Source: Candidatus Eremiobacteria bacterium
Lineage (GTDB): Bacteria > Vulcanimicrobiota > Vulcanimicrobiia > Vulcanimicrobiales > Vulcanimicrobiaceae
Assembly (NCBI GenBank): GCA_963737065.1
Contig: CAVTRC010000001.1
Location: 576,001 to 640,000, forward strand
Length of the DNA: 64,000 bases
Direction: 5' to 3'
Position numbers and translations under genes: made by a program. Numbering within the stretch: the stretch's first letter is position 1; each line of letters starts with the position of its first letter. Positions 2,988 to 36,813 of this stretch are shown one piece after another. The notes beneath the pieces are model-generated. The model saw nothing but the letters and a program-made list of their open reading frames with translations, ran no database searches and was not told the origin of the DNA.

Positions 2988-3209
2988 GTGACGCGCTTGC
3001 CACGCGTCGATTCCACGGAAGTGCTGCGCAAATTGCGTAGCGCCGGCTTCGTCATAGTCGGTACAAAAGGCAGCCATGTTCGTCTCCGCAGCGCGACGGG
3101 CAAAGCTACGACGGTGCCACATCATGCAGGCAAGACGCTTAAGCCGAAAACCTTCGCAGCAATCCTGCAGCAGGCGGGTCTCACGGCCGACGAATTCCGC
3201 AAGCTCTGA
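2988..3209 (+). CDS. hicA: HicA-family mRNA interferase toxin
   Basis: LRSAGF...KGSHVRL...TTVPHH..KTLKPKTFAAILQQAGL; 6 bp after hicB. Confidence 0.92.
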   Translation: MTRLPRVDSTEVLRKLRSAGFVIVGTKGSHVRLRSATGKATTVPHHAGKTLKPKTFAAILQQAGLTADEFRKL

Positions 3210-3699
3210 CATCAGTTCACCATTGCCGCTTCTTCGGCGTGCCTGCCGCATTGAAGTCGCGTATTGCGGTGTCGATCGTATCGAGCGTTTGAAGGTCGCT
3301 CGTTAACCTCAGCATCTTGCTCATCTCGCAGCCGGGAACGAGCAGATTGCCCATCTTGCCGACCACGGTGTTGTAGCGCTCCCGCAAGACCGAGACACTT
3401 GCCAACCTTGCCAATAGGTGTGCGCAACGACTGCATGCGTTCACAATCGTATGCGTTCGCCATGTCACGTAGGGCTATGTGACAGAGGGAGACGCCACAG
3501 GTCTGTCGCGCCTCATCGGGCGAACCGTTTTCTGCGTGCGCCGTCTCCGGCGAAGTAGATTTCAGTGAGGCGGGCGATCTCGTGAATTGCGCGTGCGACG
3601 CCTGCGAGACCGGCTTCCACTTGGTGATTGACCATAGCGGGGCGGAAATTGGCTTGCGCTTTCTATACGGCGTTCGCGCATACTAATAACCGCAGATCG

Positions 3700-5871
3700 T
3701 CAGACTTCCGCGAGTTCGCGGTCCTCATGCGGCTCTTCGCCCGATTGGCCTTTTGCGAGCGATGAGACGTCGTGTTCTTTGTTCGCCGCGCATTCAAGTT
3801 GCACGACGCCGCCGCGACGCGTCTTCGCAACCACATAGCCGCCGCAGACCGGGCATGGTTCGGGAATGACGCGATCCCACGAGACGAAGTCGCACTTCGG
3901 ATAGTTCGCGCAACCGTAGAACGTCCGGCCCTTCTTCGAACGCCGCTCGACGATCATGCCGCCGTCTTTGGGACACTTCGCGCCGGTGTCTTTGACGATC
4001 GGTTTCGTCGTCTTGCACTCGGGATAACCGGTGCACGAAATAAACCGTCCGAAGCGTCCGGTCTTGATCACCATCGCGCGTTCGCAATTCGGACAGATCT
4101 CGTCCGTCGGTTCGTCCTTGATCTCCAGACGCGGCAGCTTCTTCTCCGCCTCCTCGAGCTCGGTCGAAAACGGACCGTAGAAATCGCGCAAAATGCGAAC
4201 CCAATCGTCTTCGCCGTCGGCGACCTTATCGAGGCTGCCTTCCATCCCGGCAGTGAACTTCAAATCGACGATGTCCTTGAAGTGCTCGGCGAGCAGGTCG
4301 TTGACCGCGGTGCCGATGTCGGTCGGTTTGAAACGCCGCTCTTCTTGCGTCACGTAACCGCGCGCCTGGATCGTGTCGACGATCGTTGAGTACGTCGAAG
4401 GACGTCCGATGCCGTTGTCTTCGAGCGACTTCACGAGCGTCGCTTCGGTGTACCGCGGCGGCGGTTCGGTGAAGTGCTGTTTCGGTTCGAGCTTCGAGCA
4501 GTCCAATGCATCGCGCTCGTGGAGTTCCGGCAATCGAATCTTCGCTTTACCCTTCACCGCGCCGCTGGTCTTCGCGACGTCCGCATCGGGTGCGCCATCA
4601 TCGTCGCGACCCTCTTCATACACCTTGGTGAAACCGGCGAACTTCACGACGCTGCCCGTCGCGCGGAACGTATACTCACGCGCCGCGATATCGACCGTCG
4701 TCTGATCGAGCACCGTCGCTGACATCTGCGACGCAACGAACCGCTCCCAGATCAACGTGTAGAGACGCAGTTCATCGCGCTTGAGCACGTGCGACACCGA
4801 AGCCGGCGTCCGGAACACCGAGGTGGGGCGAATCGCTTCGTGCGCGTCTTGAGCGCCTTCGCGAACCTTGTGAAGCCGGCCGCCGTGAAACTCTTCACCG
4901 TACGTCGCCGTGATGTATTCGCGGGCATGCTCGCGCGCCGCATCGCTGATGCGCGTCGAGTCGGTACGCATGTAGGTGATCAGGCCCTGCGTGCCCTCGT
5001 CGCCGCCGAGATCGACGCCTTCATAGAGCGCTTGCGCGACCTGCATCGTGCGCCGGACGCGCAGGCGCAACTTGCGCGACGCTTCTTGCTGGAGCGTCGA
5101 GGTTGTAAACGGAGCCGGCGCGTTGCGCTTGACTTCGCGCCGCTTGACCGACGAAACGGTGTAGTGCGCGCCGTCGAGCGCGGCCAGAACCGCATCCGCT
5201 TCTTCCTTCTTAGTAATCTCGTATCTCTCGCCGCGCCGCGCAACGAGTTCGGCGGGGAAGAGCAACGCCGGATCGCGATGGGTCGAAAGATGCGCCGTCA
5301 TCGTCCAGTACTCGCGTGGAACGAACGCCGCAATCTCGCGCTCGCGGTCGACGATCAGCCGCACGGCAACCGATTGGACGCGGCCGGCGGATAGACCGCC
5401 GCGAACCTTTGCCCACAGCAACGGTGAGATTTTGTATCCGACGAGACGGTCGAGAATGCGCCGCGCCTGCTGGGCGTTCACGCGATCCATGTCGATGTGA
5501 TGCGGGTGTTTCAGCGCGGCGAGTGCGGCGTCTTTCGTGATCTCGTGCAGCTCGATCCGCTTCGGATTTTCGAGCTTCAGCAGTTCGGCGAGATGCCACG
5601 CAATCGCCTCACCTTCGCGGTCGGGGTCGGTCGCGAGGTAGACGTCGCTCGCGCTTTTCACCGCGCTCTTGAGATCTTTGATAACGTCGCCTTTCCCCTT
5701 GATCGTAAGGTACTTCGGGCTGAAGTCGTTCTCGACGTCAACACCGAGCGTGCTCTTGGGAAGATCGCGAACGTGTCCAACCGACGCTTTGACAATATAG
5801 CGAGCCGGAAGAAACTTCTTGATCGTGCGGGCCTTGGTCGGCGACTCGACGATGATCAGGGGCTTTTTCAC
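3700..5871 (-). CDS. topA: DNA topoisomerase I with C-terminal Zn ribbons; start reassigned to GTG 5871
   Basis: IVESPTKA, LATDPDREGEAIAWH, SAGRVQS, LITYMRTDS, CxxC ribbons. Confidence 0.98.
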   Translation of the reverse strand: MKKPLIIVESPTKARTIKKFLPARYIVKASVGHVRDLPKSTLGVDVENDFSPKYLTIKGKGDVIKDLKSAVKSASDVYLATDPDREGEAIAWHLAELLKLENPKRIELHEITKDAALAALKHPHHIDMDRVNAQQARRILDRLVGYKISPLLWAKVRGGLSAGRVQSVAVRLIVDREREIAAFVPREYWTMTAHLSTHRDPALLFPAELVARRGERYEITKKEEADAVLAALDGAHYTVSSVKRREVKRNAPAPFTTSTLQQEASRKLRLRVRRTMQVAQALYEGVDLGGDEGTQGLITYMRTDSTRISDAAREHAREYITATYGEEFHGGRLHKVREGAQDAHEAIRPTSVFRTPASVSHVLKRDELRLYTLIWERFVASQMSATVLDQTTVDIAAREYTFRATGSVVKFAGFTKVYEEGRDDDGAPDADVAKTSGAVKGKAKIRLPELHERDALDCSKLEPKQHFTEPPPRYTEATLVKSLEDNGIGRPSTYSTIVDTIQARGYVTQEERRFKPTDIGTAVNDLLAEHFKDIVDLKFTAGMEGSLDKVADGEDDWVRILRDFYGPFSTELEEAEKKLPRLEIKDEPTDEICPNCERAMVIKTGRFGRFISCTGYPECKTTKPIVKDTGAKCPKDGGMIVERRSKKGRTFYGCANYPKCDFVSWDRVIPEPCPVCGGYVVAKTRRGGVVQLECAANKEHDVSSLAKGQSGEEPHEDRELAEV

Positions 5872-5908
5872 GGGGTTCAGTATACTCCCGGGGTCAAGAC
5901 GGGGGCAA
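5872..5908 (-). promoter_or_regulatory. Putative sigma70-type topA promoter giving a leaderless mRNA
   Basis: Minus strand TTGCCC-N18-TATACT (5884-5879), then 7 nt, then the GTG start; no Shine-Dalgarno. Confidence 0.55.
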
Positions 5909-5989
5909 ACGGGATTGGCTGCGCCCGATTCCGTCGCGGTCGGCCTTCGGCCGCGGTGCAGTTGCAAACCGACATCCCGTAAACACGAA

Positions 5990-6037
5990 ACGCGCGCGCG
6001 TGTATACGTGTGCGCGCACATGCGCGTACGCGCGCGT
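5990..6037. repeat. 48-bp uninterrupted alternating purine/pyrimidine tract (Z-DNA/cruciform candidate)
   Basis: ACGCGCGCGCGTGTATACGTGTGCGCGCACATGCGCGTACGCGCGCGT; with flanks its ends form the inverted repeat AAACGCGCGCG...CGCGCGCGTTT. Confidence 0.9.
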
Positions 6038-6066
6038 TTGCATGATTTTGAAAAATCCTTTATAGT
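6038..6066 (+). promoter_or_regulatory. Sigma70-type promoter of the basic repeat protein
   Basis: TTGCAT (6038-6043)-17 bp-TATAGT (6061-6066); AGGAGG at 6128-6133 before ATG 6139. Confidence 0.8.
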
Positions 6067-6138
6067 GCGCTTAAAGCGCACGACGTCGTGCGCTGTCCAA
6101 GTAACGCTTATCGTCCCCCGGGGGACGAGGAGGAATGA

Positions 6139-6585
6139 ATGGACTCCGATACCATGACGAACGGCGACACGATGGGTGAAGCCAAAAAATCGCGCCGCAA
6201 ATCGAGCGGCCGTCGCAAAGCGGCCGGTGGTCGCAAGAAAACCTCGACACGGAAGTCGACGGGTGGACGCAAGAAATCAACCGGCGGACGTAAGAAGTCG
6301 ACCGGCGGACGCAAGAAGTCGACGGGTGGACGCAAAAAGTCGACCGGCGGACGTAAGAAGTCGACGGGCGGACGCAAAAAATCGACGGGCGGACGTAAGA
6401 AGTCGACGGGCGGACGCAAAAAATCGACAGCGGGACGTAAGAAGTCAACCGGCGGACGCAAAAAGTCGACCGGCGGACGCAAGAAGTCGACGCGCAAGAC
6501 CGGCGCACGTAAAGGCGGACGCAAAGCGGCTGGTGGGCGCAAAAAGGGCGCGCGCAAGGGCGGCCGTCGCAAGAAATCAGCGTAA
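6139..6585 (+). CDS. Lys/Arg-rich low-complexity histone-like protein with (RKKSTGG)n repeats
   Basis: Promoter, SD and terminator all present; repeat variation is almost entirely synonymous in this frame. Confidence 0.85.
   Translation: MDSDTMTNGDTMGEAKKSRRKSSGRRKAAGGRKKTSTRKSTGGRKKSTGGRKKSTGGRKKSTGGRKKSTGGRKKSTGGRKKSTGGRKKSTGGRKKSTAGRKKSTGGRKKSTGGRKKSTRKTGARKGGRKAAGGRKKGARKGGRRKKSA
6250..6492 (+). repeat. 21-bp coding tandem repeat: RKSTGG, 10 full heptads (9 RKKSTGG, 1 RKKSTAG), partial RKKST
   Basis: Units CGY AAR AAR TCR ACN GGY GGA read at 6268-6477. Confidence 0.95.
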
Positions 6586-6604
6586 CGCATAACACGACAA
6601 GCAG

Positions 6605-6636
6605 CGAGGACGACCATTCGGTCGTCCTCGTTTTTT
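6605..6636 (+). terminator. Intrinsic terminator
   Basis: CGAGGACGACC-ATTC-GGTCGTCCTCG followed by TTTTTT. Confidence 0.9.
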
Positions 6637-7663
6637 ATGCGCTGATTACAACGGGGCCGGCGGTGAGGTTCGGCGCTTTGCCGCCGTGTTCGTCAACCCA
6701 ATGGCACGCCGCAAAATGCCCGGCGCCGTACGCGTTGAATGCCGGCACCTCGGTTTTGCAGCGATCGAACGCAACGGGACAACGCGTGTGGAAACGGCAG
6801 CCCGAGGGCGGATTCACGGGCGAGGGAATGTCGCCGGTGAGTACGATGCGTTTCCGCCGCGTTTCCGTGTCCGGGTCGGGTATCGGAATCGCCGAAAGGA
6901 GCGCTTGCGTGTACGGGTGCAGCGGATTTTCGTAGAGCGAGTCGCGGTCCGCGAGTTCCACCAGCTTGCCGACGTACATCACCGCGACGCGCGTCGAGAT
7001 GTGACGAACGACCGAGAGGTCGTGCGCGATGAAGAGATATGTGAGGCCGAACTTCGCTTGCAGATCTTCGAGCAGATTGATGACCTGCGCTTGAATCGAC
7101 ACGTCCAGCGCCGAGACGGGCTCGTCGCAGACGATGAATTTCGGGTCGACGGCCAGCGCTCGCGCGACGCCGATGCGCTGCCGCTGGCCGCCGGAAAACT
7201 CATGCGGAAAGCGATTCGCGTGATACGGACGCAAGCCGACGAGCTGAAGCAGTTCGCGAACGCGATCGCCGATTTGTTTACCTTTTGCGAGACCGTGAAT
7301 GCGCAGCGGTTCCCCGACGATATCGCCGACCGTCATGCGCGGATTCAGCGAGGCGAACGGGTCTTGAAAGATGATCTGCATTTCGCGGCGCAGGCGACGG
7401 ACTTGCGATGCGTTCATCTTCGTAACGTCCTGGCCGTTGAAGCGAATCGCGCCTTTCGACTCGGTCAGCAGACGCAGAATCAGACGCCCGATCGTCGTTT
7501 TTCCGGAACCCGACTCACCGACGAGTCCCAGCGTTTCACCGGGCGCGATCGTGAAATCCACGCCGTCGACGGCTTTAACATCGCCAACGTGGCGCGATAA
7601 GAAGCCCGCGTGAATCGGGAAGTACTTGTAGAGATCGCGAACCTCGACGAGCGGCTGCGTCAC
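6635..7663 (-). CDS. oppF: Oligopeptide/dipeptide ABC transporter ATPase (OppF/DppF-like)
   Basis: [39 protein letters not shown]. Confidence 0.9.
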
Positions 7664-8688
7664 GGTTGCTCCACAACCGGAGCCGTTGGCGGTTCAATGC
7701 GTTCCGGACGCTGATCGGTCGCGCGGTCGTCGTAGAGAAAACATCGCGCGACGTGGTCACCGTCGAACGCATACAGCGGCACGGGCTCGCTACAGATCGG
7801 CATCGTATACGCGCAGCGCGGCGAAAAGGCGCAGCCCGGCGGCATGTTGAGCAGATTCGGCGGCTGCCCTTTGATCGGTACGAGACGTTCATGGCCACTC
7901 GCATCCAAGCGCGGCAGCGAGGAAAGCAACCCCTGCGTATACGGCATCTTCGGATCTTTGAAGATGTCGGCGGCCGTGCCGTACTCGACCATGTTTCCGC
8001 CGTACATCACGAGAACGTTCCTGCAGACCTCCGCGACGACACCGAGATCGTGCGTGATCATGATGATCGCCGCACCCGTCTCCGCCTGCATCTCGTTCAT
8101 CAGCTCGAGAATCTGCGCTTGAATGGTCACGTCGAGCGCGGTTGTCGGCTCGTCGGCGATCAACAGTTGCGGGTTGCACGAGAGCGCCATCGCGATCATG
8201 ACCCGCTGACGCATGCCGCCCGAGAACTGATGCGGGTAGTCGTTCAAGCGCGCTTGCGGCGACGGAATGCGAACTTTCTGCAGCATTTCGATCGCTTTGT
8301 CGCGCGCTTCACGTCGGCTGTACCCGAGGTGCAAACGGACGGCTTCGATGATCTGCTCGCCGATCGAAAGAACCGGATTGAGCGATGTCATCGGGTCCTG
8401 GAAGATCATCGCGATCTGATGTCCGCGAATCTTGCGCATGTCGCCTTCGCTCTTCTTCTGCAAATCTTCGCCGTTGAAGTAAATGCCGTCGCTCGTCACG
8501 GTGGCATTGCGCGCGAGGAGACGCATAATCGAAAGCGAGGTGACGGATTTGCCGGAACCGGATTCGCCGACGATGCCGAGCGTTTCACCGGAGTTCAGGC
8601 TAAAGGAGAGGCCGCTGACCGCTGTGACGGGACCGTCTTCGGTACGAAACGTTGTGCGAAGAGTTCTTACGTCGAGCAGCGCGCCCAA
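7660..8688 (-). CDS. oppD: Oligopeptide/dipeptide ABC transporter ATPase (OppD/DppD-like)
   Basis: [43 protein letters not shown]. Confidence 0.9.
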
Positions 8689-35421: not shown

Positions 35422-36813
35422 TTGAAAGGACTCTTCGCTCGACAGCCTTTGGCGTGGATTTCACGCGAACAGGACGGTCCGACGCTACGGCGCGCGCTCG
35501 GGTGGCCGGCACTTACGGCAATCGGCCTCGGTACGATGCTCGGCGGCATCTTTCCGACGATCGGCGCCGGCGCGCACGCTGCCGGTCCGGCGGTGATTCT
35601 TGCTTTCACGCTCTCCGGACTCGTGAGCTTCTGCGTCGCGTTGTGCTACGCCGAGTTTGCATCGATGGTTCCGGTGGCGGGCAGCGCGTATACGTATGCG
35701 TACGCGACGCTCGGTGAGGTCGTCGCGTGGGTCATCGGTTGGGACTTGATTCTCGAATACGGCCTGTCCCTTGCGCCGACCGCATCGTCATGGTCCGACT
35801 ATGCGCAGCATCTGCTCGCGAACGTCGGAGTGACGCTTCCGCAGTGGTCGCAAACCGCGAACCTCGGCGCCGGCCGAATCGACGTCATAGCAGCGCTCGC
35901 CGTTGCCGTTATCACGGCGCTCCTCTGCATCGGAATTCGTGAATCATCGCGCGTGAACGCGACGCTGGTCGTGTTTCAAATTTTTACGATGCTGTTGTTC
36001 GTTGCTGCAACGATCGGCTTCGCGCGTCCCGTGAATCTGCACCCGTTCGCGCCGTTCGGCGAACGCGGCGTACTGACGAGTACGGCATTGGTTTTCTTCG
36101 CGTACATCGGGTTCGACACCGTGACCGTCGCGTCGGAAGAAGCGCATGATCCGGTGCGCGACGTGCCGATCGGCATCATCATTGCGCTCGCGATCGGAAC
36201 GCTGCTCTACGTGGCGCTGACGTATTGCACGGTAGCCGTCCTGCCGTTTGCGAAATTGAGCGACGGTGCCGCCATGCTGGACGCGCTCGGCGCCGTCAAT
36301 CACAATCGCGCCGTGTATTGGCTCGTTGCTTTAGGCGGTCTCGCAGGGAACACCACCGTGATGTTGACGTCGCTGCTCGGCCAAGTACGGATCTTTTACG
36401 TGATGTCGCGCGATCGTCTGCTTCCGCCGCAAGTCGCGAAGATCCATCCGCGTTTTCGCACGCCGGCGACGATGACGGCAATCACCGGCGCGATCATTGC
36501 GGTTCTCGCAGCGGTCTTGCCGCTGACCGAACTGCTGACGCTCGTGAACATCGGCACGCTCGCGGCATTCGCGATCGTCTGCGTCGGCGTGCTCGTTCTG
36601 CGAATAACGCAACCACAAGCGAAGCGGCCGTTTCGCGCGCCGCTCGTGTGGCTCTTTTCGATTCTCGGCGCCGTGTCTTGCGGCTATTTGATCTTCGGCC
36701 TGCAGCTGCCGACGTGGCTGCGCTTCGGCATATGGTTCGTCATCGGCATCGTCATCTACGCCGTCTACGGCTATCGCAAGAGCCATCTTCGGACGCTCAC
36801 CCAGACGCGGTAA
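35422..36813 (+). CDS. APC-family (CAT-like) amino acid permease
   Basis: CYAEFASMVPVAGSAYTYAY, GWDLILEY, FFAYIGFD, RPFRAP. Confidence 0.92.
   Translation: MKGLFARQPLAWISREQDGPTLRRALGWPALTAIGLGTMLGGIFPTIGAGAHAAGPAVILAFTLSGLVSFCVALCYAEFASMVPVAGSAYTYAYATLGEVVAWVIGWDLILEYGLSLAPTASSWSDYAQHLLANVGVTLPQWSQTANLGAGRIDVIAALAVAVITALLCIGIRESSRVNATLVVFQIFTMLLFVAATIGFARPVNLHPFAPFGERGVLTSTALVFFAYIGFDTVTVASEEAHDPVRDVPIGIIIALAIGTLLYVALTYCTVAVLPFAKLSDGAAMLDALGAVNHNRAVYWLVALGGLAGNTTVMLTSLLGQVRIFYVMSRDRLLPPQVAKIHPRFRTPATMTAITGAIIAVLAAVLPLTELLTLVNIGTLAAFAIVCVGVLVLRITQPQAKRPFRAPLVWLFSILGAVSCGYLIFGLQLPTWLRFGIWFVIGIVIYAVYGYRKSHLRTLTQTR

Follow-up and report, generated by a model that had tools for sequence, protein, structure and literature searches.

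Both supercoiling-sensitive promoters of topoisomerase I genes and Z-DNA as a sink for supercoils are already known. New at the locus described here is a natural, clade-conserved element beside a topA gene, a perfect 48-bp alternating purine-pyrimidine (RY) tract that is prone to form Z-DNA. The tract was found in a stretch of 64,000 nucleotides, referred to below as the window, from contig CAVTRC010000001.1 of a Candidatus Eremiobacteria bacterium. The window belongs to the Eremiobacterota (Vulcanimicrobiota), the tract occurs in a group of uncultured soil bacteria, and all the genomes compared are metagenome-assembled genomes (MAGs) or uncultured lineages. The tract lies between topA, which encodes DNA topoisomerase I (TopA), and a divergently transcribed gene for an extremely basic repeat protein (the basic gene and the basic protein in what follows).

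The topoI promoters of mycobacteria have been reported to be supercoiling-sensitive by way of sub-optimal spacing, and to be affected by neighbouring transcription (Ahmed et al., 2015, PMC4770202). Our locus shares the sub-optimal distance that separates the -35 element from the -10 element of a topoisomerase I promoter and lends itself to the same homeostatic logic, in which the transcription of a conserved neighbour and the topology of the upstream DNA influence expression. The mycobacterial neighbour, however, lies upstream and sends positive supercoils, and gyrase is recruited there, whereas the neighbour here is divergent and negative supercoils are therefore expected between the two promoters. 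A long Z-prone tract and an apparently leaderless topA further distinguish the present locus, the part of the mycobacterial account drawn on here describing no Z-DNA element.

The tract also resembles the Z-forming inserts of E. coli plasmids in being a CG-rich alternating sequence upstream of a promoter, a position from which the plasmid inserts flip under transcription-driven negative supercoiling and absorb the energy that would activate the promoter. Such inserts are said to have served Rahmouni and Wells in 1989, and Sheridan, Benham and Hatfield in 1999, as in-vivo probes of, or sinks for, supercoiling. Divergent transcription underwinds the DNA between promoters (the twin-domain model), CG-rich RY tracts flip to the Z form under negative supercoiling, and TopA relaxes negative supercoils. 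Unlike the plasmid inserts, which were engineered, the element here is a natural part of a chromosome, its alternation is conserved in a clade, and it stands at a gene whose product governs negative supercoiling. For Z-DNA in bacteria the leading hypothesis is torsional buffering, with limited direct in-vivo evidence and most of the support coming from computation and biochemistry, according to the part of a 2026 review used here (PMC13463272).

The basic protein has its nearest likenesses in Chlamydia Hc2/HctB (PMC2848022), Pseudomonas AlgP (PMC9239181) and the N-terminal domain of Streptomyces DdbA (PMC3643593), small or modular proteins with very basic, low-complexity Lys/Arg repeats whose copy number varies between strains or species, and which are presumed to bind a polyanion (DNA). 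It differs from them, as they are portrayed in the passages used here, in having no HC2 match, in a repeat unit of seven residues (RKKSTGG) with abundant Gly, Ser and Thr, and in a conserved acidic N-terminal motif. AlgP has been linked to polyphosphate granules (PMC9239181), so that binding to DNA is not to be assumed for the basic protein, and other polyanions are possible targets. Lysine repeats at the C-terminus of actinobacterial TopA stabilise the enzyme-DNA complex (PMC5714199), which is a further case of a basic repeat module associated with topoisomerase I; those repeats are fused to the enzyme, whereas the C-terminus of TopA here is formed by Zn ribbons plus an acidic tail and the repeats belong to a separate, divergent protein. 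The earlier note on this DNA knew of no described system with such a layout, and full-text literature searches likewise found no description of the gene pair, of a leaderless topA, of the two-hairpin leader of the basic gene or of the layout as a whole.

The divergent locus and its alternating tract

The elements that carry the argument are the following, in window coordinates.

3700..5871, minus strand: topA, DNA topoisomerase I, 723 aa, GTG start (open reading frame (ORF) list, profile matches)
5879..5908, minus strand: topA core promoter, -35 TTGCCC (5908-5903), 18-nt spacer, -10 TATACT (5884-5879), from the promoter scan and conserved in a 13-genome alignment
5990..6037: perfect alternating RY tract, Z-DNA-prone element, 48 bp
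6038..6066, plus strand: basic gene promoter, -35 TTGCAT (6038-6043), 17-nt spacer, -10 TATAGT (6061-6066)
6139..6585, plus strand: basic repeat protein gene, 148 aa (ORF list)

topA and the basic gene are divergent and are separated by 267 bp (5872..6138), and the coordinates agree with the arrangement of topA and an (RKKSTGG)n gene that the earlier note had put forward. The recognisable promoter claimed there for each gene was recovered by a promoter scan covering 5600-6900, which gave two promoter-like sites against 0.2 +/- 0.4 in shuffled sequences. The TTGCAT-17-TATAGT promoter of the basic gene matches at 12/12 positions in 10 of the 13 members of the clade to which the window belongs and at 11/12 in the other three, and at least 9/12 positions match in 64 of 70 loci. 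The -35 elements are 129 bp apart in the window (5903-5908 on the minus strand and 6038-6043 on the plus strand) and, judged from tract positions, about 60-125 bp apart in the nearest relatives, a back-to-back spacing that fits the few hundred bp or less expected under the twin-domain model.

The tract contains 14 CG, 6 CA/TG and 3 TA pyrimidine-purine (YR) steps, CG thus making up about 60% of them. Uninterrupted alternation rich in CG and CA/TG over 48 bp is the sequence character of a flipon, and the length compares with a minimum of roughly 8 bp for Z formation (PMC3024258). The next longest RY runs in the window measure 23, 17, 16 and 16 bp, and a first-order Markov model of the window predicts, per 64 kb, 1.7e-7 runs of at least 48 bp, 0.1 of at least 23 bp and 3.1 of at least 17 bp, so that the 48-mer alone is anomalous. 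The 23-bp run (35684-35706) was considered for a common motif; it lies inside an amino-acid-permease-like coding frame and its likeness to the tract is attributed to chance. A perfect 48-bp tract, as first reported, therefore stands, while the gap of one base then placed between it and the -35 hexamer does not, there being zero bases between them when the 17-nt spacer is read.

Other readings of the tract found little in their favour. A cruciform or hairpin was rejected because the single strand folds with z = -0.72 and 50 of 200 shuffled sequences fold equally well. Tandem Repeats Finder (TRF) reports no repeat there, and periodicity occurs in 5 of 13 relatives only, which speaks against a tandem-repeat origin. 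Nor does the tract behave as a phase-variable repeat, being upstream of the -35 element and outside both spacer and coding sequence, with no TRF hit and with no periodicity beyond RY in the window. The background is permissive, CpG being over-represented (observed/expected 1.67) and TpA depleted (0.59) in the window, and the high CpG fits a preprint which, in the portion consulted here, ranks Vulcanimicrobiota first among all phyla for predicted Z-DNA density (10.64898/2025.12.30.697008).

Conservation of the alternation among relatives

Relatives were collected by a TopA scan with one genome per species, which gave 558 matches, and the best 80 of these 558 were kept. Their TopA proteins are 70-91% identical to that of the window, and most are labelled as Eremiobacterota or Vulcanimicrobiota MAGs, a few carrying other phylum names and some no phylum. 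Five of the 80 loci have no more than 178 nt upstream of topA and were not assessable for the gene pair. A divergent K/R-rich ORF is present upstream of topA in all 75 assessable loci, starting about 130-570 nt away; five of these ORFs fell outside the first search pattern and were recognised on re-inspection. This comparison, run as the earlier note had set it, bears out the presence of the divergent basic gene in related genomes, and the two back-to-back genes make up a transcription unit that is conserved in Eremiobacterota.

The long tract has a narrower distribution. Perfect RY tracts of 39-59 bp occur in 12 of 70 loci and in the window, and on the TopA tree tracts of at least 39 bp form a single clade (13/13 rows, SH-aLRT 99). 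Its sister clade of 30 rows comprises 12 with tracts of 17-26 bp, 7 with 11-16 bp and 11 with 10 bp or less. Shorter RY blocks, more than one per locus and split by phase breaks, are found in several cases, L028, L054, L010 and L011 among them. Long alternation is specific to the intergenic region: the 616,974 bp of the 70 loci that lie outside it contain 21 RY runs of at least 14 bp and none of at least 17 bp, while the 16,183 bp of intergenic DNA from the same loci contain a run of at least 17 bp in 29 of 70 cases and of at least 39 bp in 12 of 70.

What is preserved in the clade is the alternation. The 38 bp that end at the -35-proximal end of the tract were compared, anchored, in 12 genomes, L017 being set aside because an odd-length GGGA interruption shifts its phase (with L017 included, 16 columns show transversions). 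The base never changes in 5 of the 38 columns, and the other 33 show transitions and no transversion at all. The four-fold sites of topA in all 13 clade genomes, L017 included, give 27 invariant columns, 32 with transitions only and 165 with transversions; with 197 of 224 columns variable these sites are near saturation. Transition-only columns make up 16% of the variable four-fold columns, and at that rate the probability of 33 out of 33 would be near 1e-26. This result is equivalent to saying that each genome retains a perfect tract in the same phase, and the comparison gauges how much divergence that retention has survived. No conserved internal motif was seen across the 13 clade tracts. 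The expectation that RY alternation would be conserved despite base changes was thus borne out in the window's own clade, in all 33 variable columns; many relatives have no alternation longer than 10 bp.

Five of the 13 tracts (L003, L006, L007, L008 and L022) show a significant hexamer periodicity (z 2.9-4.2), which is lacking in the window (z -0.8) and in the other seven; slippage thus adds to turnover in one subclade and does not account for the whole pattern. A shared short element (..TCCTGAGC..GTCGAAGG..) also occurs in the intergenic region, upstream of the RY tract in L003, L004, L006 and L017 and in place of the tract in L030, L038, L040, L044 and L046, and is perhaps a short insertion element that is repeated in genomes of this phylum.

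The position of the tract is as regular as its phase. It ends 0-2 bp from the -35 element of the basic gene in 12 of the 13 clade members, the second block of L017 doing likewise, and shorter tracts end 3-5 bp from that element in 14 further loci. The distance to the -35 element of topA varies from 12 to 81 bp, and the tract therefore belongs, by position, to the promoter of the basic gene. Any coupling to topA would have to be indirect and to tolerate distance, as diffusing supercoils would. The earlier proposal that the tract couples topA to the basic gene is weakened by this register and survives in the indirect form alone.

Possible roles of the tract

The energetics of the tract were explored with a SIBZ-type B-Z model at equilibrium, which allowed one stretch of Z-DNA within a domain of 5 kb (3500-8500), and with the dinucleotide and junction energies listed in Table 1 of Zhabinskaya and Benham (PMC3024258). 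The mean probability of Z over the tract is 0.005 at a superhelical density (sigma) of -0.030, 0.23 at -0.035, 0.67 at -0.040 and 0.88 at -0.045, which places the modelled flip at a sigma of about -0.035 to -0.045, for a single-run model with assumed twist and stiffness constants. The other sites in 3500-8500 stay at or below 3e-4 at -0.04 and beyond, the best of them peaking at 0.005 at -0.035. From the same constants, simple arithmetic has a complete flip absorbing about 9 turns, a large amount for so short a domain. In 38 of 70 loci the segment that would turn to Z-DNA most readily, out of the entire locus, lies in the intergenic region.

The promoter of topA is of a kind that would respond to such changes. 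Its 18-nt spacer in the window is sub-optimally long, and of the 55 sequences whose -10 element is TATACT, 37 have an 18-nt spacer and 17 a spacer of 17 nt. In other bacteria negative supercoiling activates promoters that have long spacers, as described in the part of the source used here (PMC9303308), and the topA promoter should therefore be supercoiling-activated. A dependence of spacer length (17 or 18 nt) on tract length was looked for, and no clean relation emerged.

With its alternation preserved through base changes, the tract is a strong candidate for a natural switch of DNA shape responsive to twisting. The reading that we favour, tentatively, is that it is a selected torsional element which flips above a threshold, absorbs supercoils, damps the basic promoter and clamps the tension at topA. 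Divergent transcription would pump negative supercoils into the 200-270 bp between the promoters, TopA being the enzyme expected to remove them, and the window's clade would have elaborated the sequence immediately upstream of the -35 element of the basic gene into a CG-rich alternating tract of 39-59 bp in which selection holds alternation per se and no particular sequence. Once local sigma passed about -0.035 to -0.045 the tract would go from B to Z, taking up about 9 turns and setting a B-Z junction 0-3 bp from the -35 hexamer of the basic gene. This would be expected to damp or switch off the basic promoter. The same flip would be expected to clamp superhelical tension at the topA promoter with its supercoiling-activated 18-nt spacer. 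The tract would thus act mainly on the basic gene, with topA coupled only through shared supercoils.

Several observations weigh against this reading. Of the 70 tree rows, 23 have RY alternation of 10 bp or less and yet keep the same gene pair and promoters, which makes the tract an addition to the module and no part of its core. Its occurrence beyond the long-tract clade is patchy, the four length classes requiring 24 changes on the tree, and the hexamer-periodic tracts point to slippage in part of the clade itself. The CpG-rich background of the phylum (1.67) and its high predicted Z-DNA density would favour such tracts in any case. The variable distance to the -35 element of topA does not help, and absorption of supercoils beside topA would lower, not raise, a supercoil-driven induction of that gene. 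The modelled onset for long tracts (sigma -0.035 to -0.037) is barely easier than that of the best short CG runs elsewhere (median -0.042), so that length affects capacity far more than threshold, and these values come from a model which ignores competing strand opening and uses assumed constants for helical twist, junction twist and superhelical stiffness. The topological switch proposed in the earlier note thus keeps the support of the gene pair in 75 of 75 loci, the retained alternation, the modelled flip and the 18-nt spacer, and loses generality because the long tract belongs to one clade only.

Fixed register beside the -35 element combined with the lack of any conserved sequence would also suit a platform whose shape is read by a protein, such as a gyrase loading site or cleavage hotspot from which negative supercoils reach the promoters, a site for a nucleoid protein, or one through which the basic protein regulates its own gene, with no B-Z flip needed. 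Such a platform would be in line with the preference of eukaryotic topoisomerase II for repeats of alternating purine and pyrimidine, and with the influence of basic polypeptides on B-Z equilibria. It would also be in line with the upstream region of mycobacterial topoI, which, in the part of that report used here, recruits gyrase and needs it for promoter activity (PMC4770202). We consider this explanation unlikely, since neither Pfam nor the AF2 model gives the neighbouring basic protein a Z-alpha-like or other folded domain, a length of 39-59 bp with content free save for alternation is unusual for a defined binding site, and the binding protein is itself hypothetical.

Somewhat less likely again is a role in ordinary B-DNA mechanics, with the tract serving as a GC-rich insulator against the spread of promoter melting or of supercoil-driven opening from one divergent promoter to the other, or as a flexible run of YR steps that aids the wrapping of upstream DNA on RNA polymerase. 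The tract does coincide exactly with the zone of upstream contacts (-37 to -84) at the basic promoter and lies between two AT-richer core promoters, and some 60% of its YR steps are CG. A GC clamp, however, needs no strict alternation, yet none of the 33 variable columns has a transversion, and both promoters are kept in relatives that lack the tract.

The most far-reaching version of the favoured torsional reading appears doubtful to us at present. It would make the tract the Z-DNA switch of a supercoil homeostat, flipping when TopA is limiting, with the basic protein binding or stabilising Z-DNA or constraining supercoils, regulating its own gene and setting, together with topA, the superhelical set-point of the clade.

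That the tract is functionless, a self-renewing simple sequence of even-length RY units at a permissive spot upstream of a promoter, is the most improbable of the explanations, for although the hexamer periodicity in 5 of 13 tracts, the length range of 39-59 bp, the patchiness outside the clade and the CpG-rich background (1.67) of a phylum reported in the preprint excerpt to have the highest predicted Z-DNA density are all in keeping with it, some 617 kb of neighbouring DNA in the same genomes lack a single RY run of at least 17 bp, the end-point is fixed relative to the -35 element, the tract is kept in 13 of 13 clade members despite near-saturated four-fold sites, and the window's own tract has no periodicity.

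The flanking genes and what the locus means

The remaining features of the intergenic region and of the basic transcription unit are these.

5909..5989, no strand assigned: insert of 81 nt that separates the topA promoter from the RY tract and has inverted repeats of 7 nt at its ends, recognised as an alignment gap
6073..6138, plus strand: structured 5' leader of the basic gene (inverted repeats, per-sequence folding)
6603..6632, plus strand: intrinsic-terminator-like hairpin of 13 pairs with a T run, which ends the basic gene's transcription unit

The identity of topA is clear from a score of 796 bits against TIGR01051 (topA_bact, cut-off 456) and from the Toprim, Topoisom_bac and Zn_ribbon_Top1 domains found by Pfam, which are followed by an acidic C-terminal tail. 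Its -10 element TATACT is separated from the GTG start codon by only 7 nt (GAACCCC), so that the mRNA looks leaderless instead of having an ordinary leader. In 55 of 71 sequences TATACT stands at the same distance of 7 nt (in one case 6 nt) from the start codon, with variable intervening nucleotides, and no Shine-Dalgarno sequence is conserved before topA, GGGAG in the window reading GGCGG in many relatives. Six more distant relatives have the same TATACT followed by a leader of about 28 nt with a Shine-Dalgarno-like GGAGG or GGGGGAG. From these sequences the topA mRNA of the window is probably leaderless. That topA might continue as coding sequence across the tract (ORF 3700-6081) was rejected, since the intergenic regions of relatives (196-267 bp) do not differ in length by multiples of 3. 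Inside the topA spacer lies TTGACC (5897-5892, minus strand), conserved as TTGACC(CCGG) across most loci and off any usable distance to the -10 element; an operator is conceivable, as is a piece of a second, alternative promoter.

Among the loci compared, the 81-nt insert is unique to the window, being missing in the 12 nearest relatives and matched by blastn in the window only, and folds on itself into a long hairpin (-33 kcal/mol). A repeated mobile element was considered and set aside, there being no second copy in the window or the 80 loci.

The leader of the basic gene has a 5'-terminal hairpin with arms at 6075-6084 and 6085-6094, and a second hairpin (6111-6128) that adjoins the Shine-Dalgarno sequence GAGGAGG (6127-6133). 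Two hairpins are predicted in 61 of 61 orthologous leaders, where 25 and 15 arm variants preserve pairing. RNAalifold found no structure on a MAFFT alignment of the leaders because the hairpin arms were mis-aligned between clades, and per-sequence folding was used instead. An RNA gene in the intergenic region was rejected, the Rfam matches at E <= 1 being sub-threshold and compositional only (mir-466, for example, 28.6 bits against a gathering score of 85). A 17-bp DNA palindrome (GTGCGCTT A AAGCGCAC) at 6065-6081 covers the end of the -10 element and the +1 of the basic gene, predicted at about 6073-6075, and could be an operator or merely the DNA image of an alternative RNA pairing.

The basic protein has a pI of 12.0 and 41% K+R (37 K, 34 G, 24 R, 18 S and 18 T), and consists of a short acidic N-terminus (MDSDTMTNGDTM) followed by nine exact RKKSTGG repeats, which are encoded by an 11.4-copy 21-nt tandem repeat (6252-6491). 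Its orthologues share the acidic N-terminal motif MDSD.M.NG.. and have diverse repeats of the GGRKKAA, VRKKA and TAKKS types. In L015 the repeats of the orthologue are broken by a stretch of N, which indicates that 21-nt repeats break short-read assemblies and that repeat counts from MAGs need caution. The gene looks strongly expressed, and its product looks intrinsically disordered as well as extremely basic. A single-sequence AF2 model has a mean pLDDT of 57.8, a pTM of 0.13 and no secondary structure.

Family searches with the basic protein gave no Pfam family at E <= 10, no NCBIfam at E <= 0.01, low-complexity noise only among PDB sequences, and no match to the HC2 profile (PF07382) even at E = 10. 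A word-indexed homologue search with its N-terminal 40 residues returned five candidates, none of them significant. The search with the whole protein gave 22 matches, among them 17 DUF6496 proteins and one PF01814 protein, which have the repeat module alone in common with it, and one orthologue (P0008). The RKKSTGG-type module also forms a linker or tail on other Baltobacteraceae proteins (P0001, P0005, P0007, P0013 and P0021), and its presence on DUF6496 and PF01814 proteins marks it as a lineage-wide building block that is not unique to the basic gene. The ESM Atlas places the basic protein with clusters of Vulcanimicrobiota hypothetical proteins and, more weakly, with an Actinomycetota cluster in which 28% of members have HC2 (score 0.90). 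Its K/R-rich tandem repeats, disorder and pI of 12.0 are HC2-like in composition, and it is presumed by analogy to be a nucleoid or polyanion binder. Of the DNA-condensing, histone-like protein proposed earlier the K/R-rich composition remains, and without a Pfam, NCBIfam or PDB family match 'histone-like' is a label of compositional analogy.

Downstream of topA and on the same strand lies trmFO (585-1943), an order that presumably resembles the Bacillus arrangement. The two genes are separated by an insertion of a HicB-like antitoxin gene (2742-2981) and a HicA toxin gene (2988-3209).

If the supercoil-homeostat reading were true, the locus would represent a selected regulatory role for Z-DNA in bacteria, of which literature searches found no description. 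The 267-bp region is a small, clonable object for a direct test of such a role, and its tract occupies one specific site, between the promoters of the enzyme that removes negative supercoils and of a histone-like gene. The locus also documents a phylum-wide pairing of topA with a basic protein, a probably leaderless topA and a conserved two-hairpin leader on the basic gene. For bacterial Z-DNA more generally, an alternation held through near-saturating silent turnover provides an evolutionary signature that has otherwise been missing.

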